A DNA stretch of 64,000 nt. It comes from an uncultured Lentisphaeria bacterium (GTDB lineage Bacteria; Verrucomicrobiota; Lentisphaeria; Victivallales; Victivallaceae). Under the pieces are notes generated by a model. That model had not been told where the DNA came from. It searched no databases and worked only from the letters and a program-made list of their open reading frames with translations. Both the position numbers and the translations under genes were made by a program. Each line of letters begins with the position of its first letter. Positions within the stretch are counted from its first letter, which is position 1. Shown piece after piece: positions 6,772-17,676 of this stretch. The DNA is taken from assembly GCA_903831825.1 (NCBI GenBank), contig CAIKZE010000219.1:2025-66024 (forward strand). The letters are read 5' to 3'.

Positions 6772-7824
6772 TTATTCTTCCGATTTATAGTTAACCGGTT
6801 TGCCGTCGGCAACCACCGATTTATCCCAGGCGGACTTGACCAGATTGAAAACGTTTTCCGGAATCGGAACGTATTTCAGATTGGTCGCGCTCTGAGCTCC
6901 TTCAGTGAAACACCATTTGAAATATTTGAGCATGGCTTCGGCCTTGGCTTTGTTCTCCTGATTTTTATAAATCAGAATAAAGGTGGCGCCGGTGATCGGC
7001 CATGAATCTTTTCCCGGCTGGTCGTTCAGTTCCATATAGAACGCCGGCGCATTCTGCCAGTCGGCATTGGCTCCGGCCGCCTGGAAAGTGCTGATTTCAG
7101 GTTTAACGAAATTGCCGTCACGGTTTTTCAGCATAACGGTCGGCAGTTTTGATTCAAGCGCATAAGTATATTCGACGTAGCCGATGGAACCCTTGACTTT
7201 CTGCACGTTATTGCAGACTCCCGGGTTCTTCTGACCGCCGATGCCGACCGGCCATTTGACGGATTTGTCGCAGCCGACATCTTTTTTCCAATCAGCTGAA
7301 ACTTTCGTGAGATAATCGGTGAATATCCAGGTGGTGCCGGAACTGTCGGAACGATGAACAACGGTTACCGGAAGGTCCGGCAGCTTCAGTTCCGGATTGA
7401 GTTTGGCGATAGCCTGATCGTTCCAGTTCTTGATATTGCCGAGGAATATATTGCCTACGGTTTCGCCGTCAAGCTTAAGCTGGTTGATTTCCACGCCCGG
7501 CACATTGACGACGATGACAACCCCGCCCATCAGCATCGGAAACTGCATCAACCCGTCTTTTTCCAGTTCTTCCAGTTTCAGCGGATTGTCGGTGGCTCCG
7601 AAATCCACCGTTTTGGATTTAATCTGATTGATGCCCGCGCCCGAACCGACTGACTGATAGTTTATTCTGGTCCCGGTTGCTTTCTGGAAGTTGTAAGTCC
7701 AGACCCGGTAAACCGGTTCCGGGAAAGACGCGCCGGCGCCGTTAATGGTTTCCGCGCAAAATCCCGACACCGCAGTTAAACCTGCGACAATTGAAAGCCC
7801 TGCTGTTTTTTTGAACCAATTCAT
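6772..7824 (-). CDS. pstS: Phosphate ABC transporter substrate-binding protein PstS
   Basis: 350-aa ORF with a signal peptide followed by the PstS-type GAGASFP motif. First gene of the operon. Confidence 0.9.
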   Translation of the reverse strand: MNWFKKTAGLSIVAGLTAVSGFCAETINGAGASFPEPVYRVWTYNFQKATGTRINYQSVGSGAGINQIKSKTVDFGATDNPLKLEELEKDGLMQFPMLMGGVVIVVNVPGVEINQLKLDGETVGNIFLGNIKNWNDQAIAKLNPELKLPDLPVTVVHRSDSSGTTWIFTDYLTKVSADWKKDVGCDKSVKWPVGIGGQKNPGVCNNVQKVKGSIGYVEYTYALESKLPTVMLKNRDGNFVKPEISTFQAAGANADWQNAPAFYMELNDQPGKDSWPITGATFILIYKNQENKAKAEAMLKYFKWCFTEGAQSATNLKYVPIPENVFNLVKSAWDKSVVADGKPVNYKSEE

Positions 7825-7881
7825 TTGTTCTTTCCTTAATTAATTTAAAGGTTGACTGTCAACATAAAGCTACTCCTCATT

Positions 7882-7900
7882 TGTTAGGGTTCTGTTAGGG
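7882..7900 (-). promoter_or_regulatory. Pho-box-like direct repeats upstream of pstS
   Basis: The minus strand reads CCCTAACA-gaa-CCCTAACA, an exact 8-mer repeated at 11-bp phase, 58-76 nt upstream of the pstS start. Further TAACA words occur at 7937, 7948 and 7956. The 11-bp phasing of 7-8-mers is the PhoB box architecture. Confidence 0.4.
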
Positions 7901-7964
7901 CGTAATTAGAAATGAAATAAACTTATAAAACGCTTTTGTTAGCATATTGTTATAGTGTTACAGA

Positions 7965-9350
7965 TTAACGACTTAACCGGCGGCACCGGAGCTTTATAAC
8001 TACAGAGGCACAAAGACACAGGGAAAGCATTTTCTCCATTTTGGGCAGCCGACTCCGAGATTTTAGAGAGCCGTTGAGCAGAAGCATTGCCGGCATGGGA
8101 AGTATGGGAAGCATGGGAAGTTCCGACATTTCCGAGTGCTTAGAGAGCTCTTGAGCAGAGGCCGTGTCAGCATAGCCAGCCGGGCAACCGTCCGACTCCG
8201 AGCTTTTGGAGAGTGTTTTAGCAGAGACCTCATCGGATTTTCCGTCGACACTCCCATACTTCCCATACTTCCCATACTTCCCATTATTCCCATCGTCTTT
8301 CAAGATTCCCGAGCCATTAGAGAGCTCTTGAGCAGAGGCTGTTTTGCCCATGCGGCCAGCATAGCCAGCCGGGCAACCGCCCATTTCCGAGTAATTAGAG
8401 AGTGCTTGAGCAGATGTTTAAGCAAATTTCCCATTATTCCCATTATTCCCATCATTCCCATCGGCATTTACCATACCATAGCATAGCACATTCCCGAGAT
8501 GTTGGAGACCGCTTTTAGCTTGCTGTTATTTTGTTTTCCACTTTTCTCGCTTTTCTCGCTTTTTCATTTCCGAGTGTTGGAGAGCCGTTGAGCAGAACCG
8601 TTTTTACTCACTTTTCCGACGGCTGGTTAAGTTTTTCGTTAATAAATTTCAATTTTGTCATTTTGGACATCCTGGACAGTGCTTGAGCAGAAAAAAGTTG
8701 AATAATGTCCAACATCTCCGAGACTTTGGAGACCCGTTCAGCACAACGGTTTTAATTTTTAATAAGATTTTCAAACAACATTTACGACATCTGGTTAAGA
8801 TTTTCGTTAACTGATCCGCAGTCGCGGGAGACCACCGTCCGAGACGGACGACACTATAACAAAACCCATTTTGGACACCGCTTCCCCATATTTTGGACAC
8901 ATGTTCCGGTGTAGTGCCCTCTCTCTGAGAGGGTGGTTCCGGATCCACCGTCCGAGACGGACGGCACTACAACAAAACCCATTTTGGACACCGCTTCCCC
9001 ATATTTTGGACACATGTTGTGCAGTCTCGCCCGGGACTCCGAGCTTTAGAGACATCTCCAGTATGGCGTTTTTGCCAAAAACGCCTCTCTTTGCCGGTTT
9101 TGGCAAAACTGGCATACAATTTTTCTTTCCAACATTTCCGAGGTTTTAGAGTCCTATTGAACACAATCCTTTTCTTCCACGAATTGCTCGAATGGACACG
9201 AAGAAAACCAAATTCGCGATAATCCGTGTAATTAGTGGATATAAAATCCCATTTTAAAAATTATAAGTTTTGTCTTCGTTTTCAGGATTTATTCTGAATT
9301 CTGACTCCTGAATTCTGACTCCTGAATTCTGACTCCTGAATTCTGACTTC
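7965..9350. repeat. Mosaic intergenic repeat array A
   Basis: About 11 degenerate copies of a 30-nt motif (ttccgag-N-ttagagag-N-ttgagcaga) separated by micro-repeat fillers. Fillers include 9-mers of TCCCATACT type in both orientations, a 22-mer x2, a 73-nt unit x2 at 8833-8905 and 8946-9018, and a 14-mer x4. No credible gene. Confidence 0.85.
9296..9350. repeat. 14-bp tandem repeat gaattctgactcct, about 3.9 copies
   Basis: Direct reading gives units at 9296, 9310, 9324 and 9338. Sits immediately before the 147-bp repeat copy A. Confidence 0.9.
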
Positions 9351-9362
9351 TATCCCTTTACC

Positions 9363-9509
9363 TATAGTAAATTTGTCAACGCAGGCAGTGAAATAGAGCT
9401 AAAATAACGCAAAAAATGCGATTTTGAAAGTTGCAGTTCAATGGCATGAAAAATGGTATTCCGGCTTTCTTGCGGGTGGCTTGCCGACGGAGAATGCATC
9501 CTTAATTTT
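9363..9509 (+). repeat. 147-bp direct repeat, copy A
   Basis: Aligns with 10441-10588 with 5 substitutions and one 1-nt indel (hand alignment). Begins tatagtaaatttgtcaacgcaggcagtg. Confidence 0.9.
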
Positions 9510-10367
9510 TCAGAAGATAAAAAAACGGCAAAGAAAAGTCACACAGTGTGTGGCGAATTGCCGTTGTCTGTCTCCGGGAAAGTAAATCGTCACATGCTGT
9601 GTGACGAATCCACGCCGTCGTTTCATCAGGATTTAGGCTGGTCTCATTACCGCACTCTGATGCGGGTCGAAAAGCCGGAAGCCAGGACTTTCTACGAACA
9701 GGAGACCGCACAGGCACATTGGAGCGTTCGCGAATTGGAACGGCAGATAGGCTCACTCTACTATGAGAGATTGCTCATGAGCAAAGAGAAGAAGGAAATG
9801 CTTTGCGAGAATCGCCATACCGTCGGACTTCATCCGCTGGATGTCATCAAGGACCCGTATGTGCTGGAATTCCTGAATCTCCCGGAAGACCATCGCTTGA
9901 ATGAAACGGATCTGGAAGACCGGCTTATTGAAAACCTGCAATCCTTCCTCCTGGAACTGGGCCACGGGTTCGCATTCATCGGACGCCAACAGCGTCTTAC
10001 GCTGGACGGAGACCATTTCTATGCTGATCTTGTATTCTATCATGTCCGGCTGAAATGCTATATCGTCATTGATCTTAAAACGCAGAAGCTGGCTCATGCC
10101 GACCTTGGCCAGATGCAGCTCTATGTCGGTTTCTACGACGAGAATGTTAAGGGAAAGGATGATAACCCCACGCTGGGGCTGATACTCTGCACTGACAAGA
10201 ACGATGCGGTAATCCGGTATGTGCTGGGGAAAGGGCAGGACAAGATATTCGCCAGCCGCTACCGGCTTGAACTGCCGTCAGAGGCAGAACTGGCCGCTGA
10301 AATGCGCCGCGAAATGAAGTTGCTTGGCATGGATGATGCAAAACAAGCGGGGGCTAAAAAGAAATGA
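9453..10367 (+). CDS. DUF1016/YhcG-like PD-(D/E)XK nuclease, 5'-truncated
   Basis: Homology to YhcG-type proteins starts only at LGWSHYRTLM. The C-terminal nuclease core is intact (GFAFIGRQQRL, YADLVFYH, IVIDLK, QMQLY). The first ~50 codons of the ORF are read from repeat DNA. An internal Met at 9594 would give 257 aa, against about 340 aa for typical full-length members as I recall them. Confidence 0.6.
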   Translation: MVFRLSCGWLADGECILNFSEDKKTAKKSHTVCGELPLSVSGKVNRHMLCDESTPSFHQDLGWSHYRTLMRVEKPEARTFYEQETAQAHWSVRELERQIGSLYYERLLMSKEKKEMLCENRHTVGLHPLDVIKDPYVLEFLNLPEDHRLNETDLEDRLIENLQSFLLELGHGFAFIGRQQRLTLDGDHFYADLVFYHVRLKCYIVIDLKTQKLAHADLGQMQLYVGFYDENVKGKDDNPTLGLILCTDKNDAVIRYVLGKGQDKIFASRYRLELPSEAELAAEMRREMKLLGMDDAKQAGAKKK

Positions 10368-10440
10368 AACTTCATTTTGAATCCAGCCTTGATTACCAGT
10401 CACTATTCACCAGTCACTATTTACCAATTGTCTCTACACA

Positions 10441-10588
10441 TATAGTAAATTTGTCAACGCAGGCAGTGAAATAGAGCTAAAATAACGCGAAAAATGCGGT
10501 TTTAAAAGTTGCAGTTCAATGGCATGAAAAATGGTATTCCCGGCTTTCTTGCGGATGGCTTGCCGGCGGAGAATGCATCCTTAATTTT
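10441..10588 (+). repeat. 147-bp direct repeat, copy B
   Basis: See copy A. Preceded by the 14-mer cagtcactattcac x2 and the junction aattgtctctacaca. Confidence 0.9.
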
Positions 10589-10812
10589 AACGCAAAGGCG
10601 CGAAGAAGAACAATAAAGAGAAAAAACCTTTTCAAAAAGGCATAAAAAAACGCATTTTATAATGAATATATGCACAACAAGTAATTTTTTTGCTGCTTGA
10701 CAGTCATAGACATGTTGACCTCATCGGGCTGTCCACTTTTTCCGGCCAGATATCTCCGGGTTTCTTTTTTTATGAAAAAAGTTTGAGATTTTTTGCTTTT
10801 TGCTTTGATTTA

Positions 10813-10831
10813 TGTAACTCTTGGGGTTACA
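10813..10831 (+). promoter_or_regulatory. Palindrome TGTAAC-N7-GTTACA in the higBA promoter region (candidate HigA operator)
   Basis: Perfect 6-bp inverted arms, 45 nt upstream of the higB ATG. Flanked by TTGATT (10805-10810) and TATAAT (10835-10840). Confidence 0.35.
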
Positions 10832-10875
10832 GTATATAATATAAATGAGATTTAGTTTTCAGTCAAGGGTTGGCA

Positions 10876-11154
10876 ATGATAAAAAGTTTTAAGCATAAGG
10901 GTTTAAAGCGGTATTGGGAACAGAATGACTGGCGCGGAATTCAGCATCAACATGCGCATAAGTTAAGATTAATTCTTGATTTGCTGAACGCAGCGACAAT
11001 TATTGATGATGTTGATTTTTCCGGTTCACGGTTGCATCCGCTGGAACCCAAAAAAGATAATATATGGTCGATAACAGTATCCGGAAATTGGCGGGTAGTG
11101 TTTAAATTTGAGAATAACAATGTTTATATTGTTGATTATAAAGACTATCATTAA
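10876..11154 (+). CDS. higB: HigB-type toxin (RelE/ParE superfamily, plasmid maintenance system killer)
   Basis: 92 aa from the ATG at 10876 (MIKSFKHKGLKRYWE...WRVVFKFENNNVYIVDYKDYH), a typical HigB sequence. The toxin precedes the antitoxin, as in higBA. Confidence 0.85.
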   Translation: MIKSFKHKGLKRYWEQNDWRGIQHQHAHKLRLILDLLNAATIIDDVDFSGSRLHPLEPKKDNIWSITVSGNWRVVFKFENNNVYIVDYKDYH

Positions 11155-11169
11155 GCATAATTTAACGGA

Positions 11170-11517
11170 ATGGAGAAAAACATGAATACGGAAAAAGAGA
11201 AGGTTTTAGACGCAACTATGCGCGCGGTCTGCCCGTCGCACCCCGGCGAAATATTAAAGGGATTGTATTTATCCGGTTCGTCAATCAGCATCAGCGAATT
11301 CGCCGAAACGATCGGTGTATCCCGCAAGGCAATTTCGGCGATAGTAAACTGTCACAAATCAGTAACTCCCGAAATGGCAATGCGTTTATCAAGAGCGACA
11401 AAGACAACTCCGCAGTTGTGGCTGAATCTTCAAGCCAACTATGATCTCTGGCATCTTGCGCATGAAAAGCAGGAAGTTTTTTCACAGATCAAACCGCTGG
11501 TTTTCGCAGTGGCATAA
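11170..11517 (+). CDS. higA: HigA-type antitoxin, XRE-family HTH
   Basis: 115-aa ORF with the HPGEILK motif and an HTH (ISEFAETIGVSRKAISAIVN). Starts 15 nt after higB. Confidence 0.85.
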   Translation: MEKNMNTEKEKVLDATMRAVCPSHPGEILKGLYLSGSSISISEFAETIGVSRKAISAIVNCHKSVTPEMAMRLSRATKTTPQLWLNLQANYDLWHLAHEKQEVFSQIKPLVFAVA

Positions 11518-11550
11518 GCGGGCAACTTGCAGGATAAGCAGATAAGCGTT

Positions 11551-11784
11551 TTACTTTTCAAAATGCTTAAGAAACAGCTCCTCAGCCTTTATCCTGCCTT
11601 CAGGCGAAACTACTATTGACTTTGTTTTTCCTTTGGGATCATGAATAAATCCTTTTTGGTAGAGGCGGTCCAGCGTATCCCAATCAAATCCTTTCCAGGC
11701 TCTGGTCATTGAATGTTCACTCCACATAACCAAATAGAGCAGAGCAAGTGTCATTTCATCAACTTTATCTTCGTTATATTTCAT
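11551..11784 (-). CDS. DUF6429-like small protein
   Basis: 77-aa ORF with LALLYLVMW...RAWKGFDWDTLDRLYQKGFI, which matches my recollection of the DUF6429 family. Convergent with higA. Confidence 0.5.
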   Translation of the reverse strand: MKYNEDKVDEMTLALLYLVMWSEHSMTRAWKGFDWDTLDRLYQKGFIHDPKGKTKSIVVSPEGRIKAEELFLKHFEK

Positions 11785-12038
11785 TCCAAAATCCTCCTGT
11801 TTTATAGGAATTTAAACTGCAAAGCAATGAAAATCAATTTATATCGTGGTCAAATTTTTTATATCGTGGTTAAACTTTGGCTGATGCGCTTAAAATCGGA
11901 TTTATGCTTTAAACCAAACTTGCCTGCTGACACATTTCCGGATTTTTGTTAAAATTTATATGCGCTGCATAGTTAGCATTGGCAAAATGATGATATAAGG
12001 ATGTATATTTGAATATAATAAAATCAGGATGTCAAAAT

Positions 12039-17482: not shown

Positions 17483-17676
17483 AATATCCAATATCCAACA
17501 CGGAATATCTCGCACAAAGACGCAAAGGCACAAAGAAAAGTAAAACTTGCCATTGTTTTTCTCTCCGTGTCTTCGTGCGAGAAGATGTTCAGCTTTTTGT
17601 ATTCTGCCTTTCCTTCCTCAGTTGGATATTTCCCGCTTCGCGGGATCCCGCCTTGCGGGACGAGATATTGGATATT
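17483..17676. repeat. MITE-like element bounded by a 13-bp perfect inverted repeat
   Basis: AATATCCAATATC (17483-17495) pairs with GATATTGGATATT (17664-17676). The interior carries CACAAAGA-type 8-mers, two small GC hairpins (cccgc-ttc-gcggg, tcccgc-ctt-gcggga) and a segment resembling 9520-9585. Confidence 0.55.

Follow-up and report, generated by a model that had tools for sequence, protein, structure and literature searches.

A 24-nt box at the downstream end of polar mosaic repeat arrays, and the accessory genes behind it, in a Victivallaceae genus

In the 64,000-nt stretch of an uncultured Lentisphaeria bacterium analysed here (the window; C219:2025-66024 of the assembly), a gene for a DUF1016 (YhcG-type) nuclease that has lost its 5' end is bracketed by two copies of a 147-bp direct repeat, at 9363-9509 (copy A) and 10441-10588 (copy B). 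The two repeats are adjacent copies of one non-coding module made up of a 24-nt box and the leader after it, and the box marks the fixed downstream end of polar mosaic arrays in this Victivallaceae genus. Accessory genes lie behind the boxes, and the box is most likely a junction or recombination anchor behind which these genes turn over, a mechanism that we infer from the arrangement of the arrays and of the DNA beside them.

The box and its arrays

The whole assembly (genome G000, from freshwater; 5.9 Mb in 506 contigs) was searched with a 42-nt profile (nhmmer), which recovered 84 copies of the box, 41 on the plus strand and 43 on the minus strand. Partial matches to copy B, aligned in register, share the core CAATTGTCCCTACATATATAGTAATTTTGTCAAC. 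The box itself comprises 24 nt, with two near-invariant halves, CTACATATATAG and TTTTGTCAAY, separated by about three variable bases. A search of the window for repeats found no inverted partner of either the box or the leader.

The arrays consist of a 30-nt motif with an imperfect hairpin (consensus CATCTCCGAGACTTTGGAGAGCCGTTGAGCAGAA), of which 527 copies are present genome-wide. Their placement around the box is polar: of the motifs located no more than 3 kb from a box, 275 are upstream of it and on its strand, five are downstream, and none is on the opposite strand. Arrays are present at 42 of the 55 boxes that have at least 1 kb of contig upstream, with a median length of 645 nt and four motifs, and reach ~1.5 kb. 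Many other boxes have a contig end 100-700 nt upstream of them, so that the arrays break the assembly. Together, the polarity of the motif and the array counts identify the box as the single, fixed downstream terminus of each array.

Units are built in one order, a 30-nt-motif array and/or a micro-repeat, then the box, a leader, and the cargo, and are also found in tandem. The modules upstream of the box are interchangeable and are mostly short tandem repeats (TTCAATT, CCAGTCA/CCATTCA, TTAGAAC, a 14-mer, and others). Several leader families occur downstream of the box, and upstream module types and leader types are associated almost freely.

Copies A and B differ by exactly five substitutions and one 1-nt indel in a pairwise alignment, which bears out the hand alignment made in an earlier, sequence-only reading of this DNA. 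A repeat finder splits the pair into two gap-free blocks with 94% and 96% identity, and weaker similarity continues for ~10 nt further upstream of both copies. Copy B as a query against the whole assembly gave dozens of partial matches, while the long 147-nt form is limited to four copies, namely A, B, one on contig C178 (87-93% identical), and one on contig C235 (81%). The same reading had taken the repeat to be part of a longer element. It does belong to a larger repeated family, but no longer, protein-coding parent copy was found, and its longest relatives (C178 and C235) extend solely through additional non-coding modules. Contig C235 (2,924 nt) has the same ~125-nt array unit at both of its ends, and a promoter-like module as a direct repeat on either side of a SLFN/AlbA_2 gene; it may represent a tandem arrangement that collapsed, or a piece that was assembled as a circle.

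Empty sites and alternative cargo

The repeat pair lies in an accessory island of 3,958 bp (7977-11934, plus strand) between pstS and a gene for a PfkB-like kinase, and this island is absent from two of the four sister species of the genus (G001, G002, G003, and G004). In G003 (contig C61) and G001 (contig C769) the two genes are adjacent, ~295 bp apart. The window is homologous to the empty site up to 7976 and again from ~11935 onward, which delimits 7977-11934 as a 3.96-kb insertion. At the same site G002 and G004 have array DNA at contig ends and a different sequence beside the kinase gene. The pstS-kinase intergenic region (window 7825-12008) is an insertion hotspot, occupied in three of the five species and empty in two. 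The G002 cargo beside the kinase gene is a different one, a small open reading frame (ORF) whose product looks ribbon-helix-helix-like by eye.

The reverse case is a 3.4-kb island in G003 that contains two boxes and has a MNT-HepT pair and a Bro-N protein as cargo; contig C155 of G000 is uninterrupted there, and no target duplication is seen. Neither terminal inverted repeats nor a target-site duplication was detected at these two comparisons of a filled with an empty site. What the window gained is a whole island, with array, box, and cargo, and not an element inserted into the DUF1016 gene. At a third hotspot, an array and a box follow the same core gene in G003 and G000; the two arrays cannot be aligned, and the cargo differs as well: G003 has a locus for an AraC-like regulator, and G000 has the trailer end of a CRISPR array.

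The cargo is varied in content and orientation. The first gene downstream of the box is on the same strand in 47 cases and on the opposite strand in 31 (n=78) according to crude ORF calls in G000, and the ratio is ~10:8 in G003. Ten sampled cargo proteins were assigned by Pfam to SLFN/AlbA_2, IS200-like Y1 transposase (two), Fic, HsdM, N6/N4 methylase, Vsr, HigB, LacI, and DUF6036 nucleotidyltransferase. Operons headed by LacI- or GntR-type regulators share the strand of the box and begin 190-310 nt behind it, and the genes that converge on a box include those for HsdR and HsdM, a gene like those of REP-associated tyrosine transposases (RAYT; REP, repetitive extragenic palindrome), and the trailer end of a CRISPR array. 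In one CRISPR array (C248:23400-23895, repeat GTTTCAATCCACGCCCCCCCTGCGAGGAGCGAC) the degenerate terminal repeat lies ~240 nt behind a box and leader, which makes the CRISPR array one of the cargo types.

Gene fragments also adjoin repeat modules in a sister species, at locus L043 of G003 (11440-11600 and 10955-11085). A possible C-terminal remnant of a tyrosine recombinase follows the leader there (sub-threshold in Pfam, E 0.003), and the array that comes next truncates a gene of which an N-terminal fragment of 43 aa is left.

Distribution of the box

The 24-mer, searched with up to three mismatches, is present in all five species of the genus (59, 45, 5, 5, and 3 copies) and in none of 36 genomes from 34 other genera of the family and order; reversed patterns, used as controls, gave no matches. 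An exact-pattern scan of 185,579 species genomes returned matches in metagenome-assembled genomes (MAGs) of Victivallaceae and Lentisphaeria from lakes and groundwater, and in one contig of another MAG, only. Viral contigs contained no matches to the box, and a phage or satellite origin was rejected on these grounds. The layout of array, box, and cargo recurs in G003 and in metagenome contigs from freshwater (lake) sites. A literature search on Victivallaceae repeats found nothing relevant.

The truncated DUF1016 gene

The ATG-initiated ORF at 9453-10367 (plus strand, 304 aa) begins inside copy A, as had been read from the sequence. Its YhcG_C domain (PF06250) is complete (profile positions 2-155 of 157, E 3.4e-58), in line with the earlier statement that the PD-(D/E)XK core is intact. 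Of the DUF1016_N domain only the last third is covered (profile positions 86-137 of 137), and ~85 profile positions are missing together with the usual N-terminal extension. Seven full-length paralogues from the same genome (345-388 aa frames) were aligned with the window ORF and have 100-130 more N-terminal residues. Both the partial Pfam match and this alignment agree with the estimate that about the first 100 residues are gone, and since all seven aligned paralogues are full length, a short DUF1016 protein is not the norm for the family here.

The point at which family similarity begins was only partly as the sequence-only reading had placed it, about 55 codons into the ORF. The Pfam match to DUF1016_N does start at residue 55, but homology to the paralogue on contig C55 resumes already at residues 22-25 (nt 9516-9525), no more than ~15 nt past 9509, where copy A ends. 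At the corresponding position, copies B and C178 run into another repeat module, AACGCAAAGGCGCGAAG... Since homology resumes at the edge of copy A and the other copies switch modules there, the gene was cut at a module boundary, and the proposed truncation at the repeat holds, with the cut at the repeat's edge. Directly upstream of the truncated gene are the repeat array and the pstS promoter region, and not the missing 5' part. A resemblance had also been claimed between 9520-9585 and the interior of an element at 17530-17570 similar to a MITE (a miniature transposable element with inverted repeats). This was not found, as the stretch 9510-9640 has no significant match elsewhere in the genome, 17530-17570 included, and the inverted repeat seen there is accounted for by a pair of HT(V/L)CGE-like protein motifs in the linker of DUF1016, not by a MITE.

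The genome has eight or more DUF1016/YhcG loci, with paralogues on C405, C397, C361, C244, C484, C55, and C183, and at least five loci have a box no further than 6 kb away, which makes this nuclease family a recurrent passenger of the islands. For annotation, ORFs that start inside a module, such as the one at 9453, should be regarded as chimeric.

The sequence-only reading had further proposed that the repeat is the end of a transposable element carrying the 3' end of its own minus-strand gene, and that its insertion removed the 5' end of the DUF1016 gene. The truncation of the gene does fall at the edge of a multi-copy repeat, and the minus-strand frame exists as read: it is open over 57 aa in copy B, ending ...PFFMPLNCNF-stop. 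However, the frame is open in copy B only, with the similarity split over two frames in copy A, C178, and C235, and its product has no Pfam match. No longer parent that encodes a protein was found in the genome, the genus, the 185,579 species genomes, or the metagenome and viral contigs, where just the same non-coding architecture was met. Beyond the element there is no second half of the gene, and the absence of inverted termini and duplicated targets at the two empty-site comparisons also argues against insertion of a transposon. This proposal is largely refuted, and we consider it very improbable.

Possible roles of the box

The box may be the junction at which array DNA joins incoming or rearranged DNA, acting as a shared homology or recombination anchor of the kind proposed for the arrays of Neisseria intergenic mosaic elements (NIMEs) that flank minimal mobile elements. 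Accessory genes would then be gained, lost, and swapped behind the box. A joining event of this kind, exactly at the 3' edge of the leader, would have deprived the DUF1016 gene of its first 100-130 codons, and the ATG inside the repeat would be a fortuitous new start for what remained. Copies A and B, with 96.6% identity, would be young and could recombine with each other, looping out the DUF1016 cassette. This role is ranked as the most likely one, followed by an outward promoter and then by purely selfish repeat DNA, because the box is strictly terminal, the modules on either side of it are free to vary, units occur in tandem, cargo orientation is mixed, genes are truncated at module edges, and hotspots are reused.

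Several observations weigh against an anchor. The box does not have the inverted symmetry of the core sites of tyrosine or serine recombinases. Among the protein clusters with at least three members within 6 kb of boxes, no integrase-like, recombinase, or 'terminase-like' family is recurrent, and the IS200-like/RAYT genes have their own REP, which differs from the box. No recombinase or other enzyme is linked to the box. Free association of modules around a strongly conserved core would also fit a selected protein-binding or promoter element, and the rather constant spacing between the box and the LacI/GntR operons hints at a role in expression. A more specific version of the idea, in which the box is the crossover site of a new cassette-capture system in Victivallaceae, integron-like in outcome (tandem units that pair one site with one cargo, defence and toxin-antitoxin genes, and hotspots used again in other species), with a non-palindromic 24-nt site, polar arrays, and an enzyme encoded elsewhere in the genome, strikes us as quite doubtful.

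An outward 'mobile promoter' with a 5' leader, driving the gene behind the array and in one copy now expressing a truncated nuclease, would account for the AT-rich composition of the box and its TATAGT hexamer, for the ~60% of first downstream genes that are co-oriented with it, and for the start of the truncated DUF1016 ORF inside the leader. It would suit the regulator-pilin-CAZyme-like (carbohydrate-active enzyme) operons headed by LacI or GntR, and the boxes of pneumococcal BOX elements have been reported to stimulate downstream genes (PMC3049150). We nonetheless hold it to be unlikely. The hexamer has no -35 partner at 16-18 nt and the box does not score as a sigma-70-type site, ~40% of the downstream genes converge on it, and 24 near-invariant nucleotides confined to one genus, at 3 to 59 copies per species, are unlike a housekeeping promoter; no single-subunit, T7-like RNA polymerase that might read such a long promoter was found in a search made without a positive control. 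Still less probable is that the box is one more selfish module of the REP or bacterial interspersed mosaic element (BIME) type, spread by an IS200-like (RAYT) transposase and without a role in gene acquisition, with islands and arrays merely sharing permissive spots and copies A and B arising by local duplication. There are nine Y1_Tnp matches in the genome, three of them in islands, within ~2.5 kb downstream of a box, and both the strong variation of copy number between species and the complete turnover of arrays would be expected of selfish DNA. Against this, the RAYT-type genes are flanked by a different REP, from which a separate high-copy MITE is also built, the box lacks a palindrome, and strict polarity with a single terminal box is unlike REP/BIME clusters.

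Other candidate identities for the box and leader were tried and rejected. A sigma-70 consensus scan of 9200-11000 gave nothing at either box, and by eye the TATAGT is without a properly spaced -35. An Rfam scan of 7800-12000 gave a sole match, which is sub-threshold and located elsewhere, and RNAalifold predicted no consensus pairing among 36 aligned copies of the box with D1-type leaders. No convincing match to a dif/Xer-like or integration host factor (IHF)-like site was seen by eye. On C379 and C427, the sequence on either side of the Y1_Tnp genes is a different REP (GAGCCTACGGCTC / GGATGGATTAAAATCCATCC) and not the box or the 30-nt motif, and the integrase remnant behind a box of G003 was dismissed as a sub-threshold Pfam match.

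Comparison with known mosaic repeats

The box-array system is a new form within the known class of mosaic intergenic repeats, and the present analysis contributes the rule, valid across the genome, that a box terminates the arrays, together with the empty sites and the spectrum of cargo. The closest parallels in behaviour are with NIMEs, whose arrays lie beside minimal mobile elements and contain a conserved repeat proposed to seed recombination with incoming DNA (PMC1797815). Like the arrays described here, NIMEs are non-coding intergenic mosaics that vary in length and content between close relatives, adjoin syntenic sites with alternative accessory genes, including restriction-modification genes, and have a role in promoting recombination that is proposed and not proven (PMC1797815). 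They differ in having 20-bp inverted repeats (dRS3), a known target of phage integration, on either side of RS units. The Victivallaceae arrays are strictly one-directional, are built on a 30-nt motif that is unrelated, terminate in one box of 24 nt without a palindrome, have no known recombinase, and belong to another phylum (Lentisphaerota). Their behaviour is NIME-like, in that the arrays are dynamic and lie beside alternative cargo at syntenic sites, but dRS3 is absent and they are therefore not members of the NIME family.

BOX elements of pneumococcus and Streptococcus suis, with the structure boxA-(boxB)n-boxC, are likewise polar and composed of modules, of which those at the ends are distinct and those inside vary in number, and can create or extend ORFs and affect neighbouring genes (PMC3049150). 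However, they are 67-637 bp long and have terminal inverted repeats and target-site duplications in the manner of MITEs (PMC3049150). In the Victivallaceae arrays only the downstream end is conserved, and no inverted termini or duplications were seen. Clusters of REPs and BIMEs with RAYT genes are, as here, multi-copy extragenic mosaics of a narrow lineage, and BIMEs alternate in orientation. No such alternation is found in the Victivallaceae arrays, where the box is without a palindrome and the RAYT-like genes carry another REP. Integron cassette arrays and clusters of attC sites lacking integron-integrases (CALINs) resemble the present units in being one-directional tandem series of one site and one cargo each, with toxin-antitoxin and defence cargo. 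Unlike integrons, the Victivallaceae units have no IntI, their box and leader lack an attC-like folded inverted repeat, their cargo is of mixed orientation (47:31 in G000), and a long repeat array belongs to each unit.

In this poorly known and uncultured lineage of the Planctomycetes-Verrucomicrobia-Chlamydiae (PVC) group, a single 24-nt sequence thus flags where ~84 arrays end on their gene-proximal side and where accessory DNA starts. The accessory DNA behind the boxes includes restriction-modification, toxin-antitoxin, Fic, and nuclease genes, a CRISPR array, and sugar-utilisation operons. If the box anchors recombination, it would be a new and easily searchable case of gene flux being organised by non-coding arrays in bacteria other than Proteobacteria and Firmicutes; as a promoter, it would be unusually long and portable. 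Under either role, sites with a box and an array explain the fragmentation of these MAGs at such places.

Composition of the window island and neighbouring repeats

The island consists of two tandem units, both on the plus strand except for its last gene. In the first, the polar mosaic array A (7977-9293), with 30-nt motifs and fillers all on the plus strand, is followed by four copies of the micro-tandem repeat CTGAATTCTGACTC (9294-9349; repeat finder) directly upstream of the box, a position taken in other copies by other heptamer to 14-mer repeats. Box A (ctttacctatagtaaatttgtcaac; 9356-9380), one of the 84 nhmmer profile matches, precedes leader A (9381-9509), a long variant of the D1 type whose 3' edge is the truncation point of the DUF1016 gene that completes the unit. 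The second unit begins with a ccagtcactatt-type micro-repeat (10388-10425), a U2-type upstream module, before box B (ctctacacatatagtaaatttgtcaac; 10432-10458, also a profile match) and leader B (10459-10588), which is 96.6% identical to leader A by alignment. Further non-coding modules follow at 10589-10684, a AACGCAAAGGCGCGAAG-type word family and a partial 'tail' module (...ATATGCACAACAAGTAA), both common to other loci. The cargo of this second cassette is a higB-higA pair (10870-11517), both genes of which lie after copy B, with a HigB-like_toxin match at 10870-11154 and an HTH_3 antitoxin at 11170-11517 in Pfam. A DUF6429 gene (11551-11784, minus strand; Pfam) converges on higBA and is the last gene of the island.

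Two further repeat families were noted. A separate high-copy MITE of ~320-430 bp is represented by at least 80 ends, many of them at contig ends (for example C37:7079-7508, C439:2704-3025, C341:2990-3300, and C159:22398-22716). Its terminal inverted repeats are GGCATGTTTCAAAAGGTAGTTGACAC, and it contains the REP that flanks the IS200-like/RAYT genes (GAGCCGTAGGCTC..., GGACGGATTTTAATCCGTCC); on C338, one copy is inserted inside a box, directly after TAATTTTG. The 'tail' module (...ATATGCACAACAAGTAAAAATAAAGTGGACAGACCCC) has ~16 copies (window 10642-10680 and 10727-10745, C367:11514-11838, C178, C235, and C248), and the window has a truncated copy with an inverted fragment just upstream of higBA. 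On C367 two copies form an outward-facing inverted pair with a distance of ~320 bp, in the manner of a small element whose ends (GGGGTCTGTCCAC...) are reminiscent of the inverted repeats of the Tn3 family.

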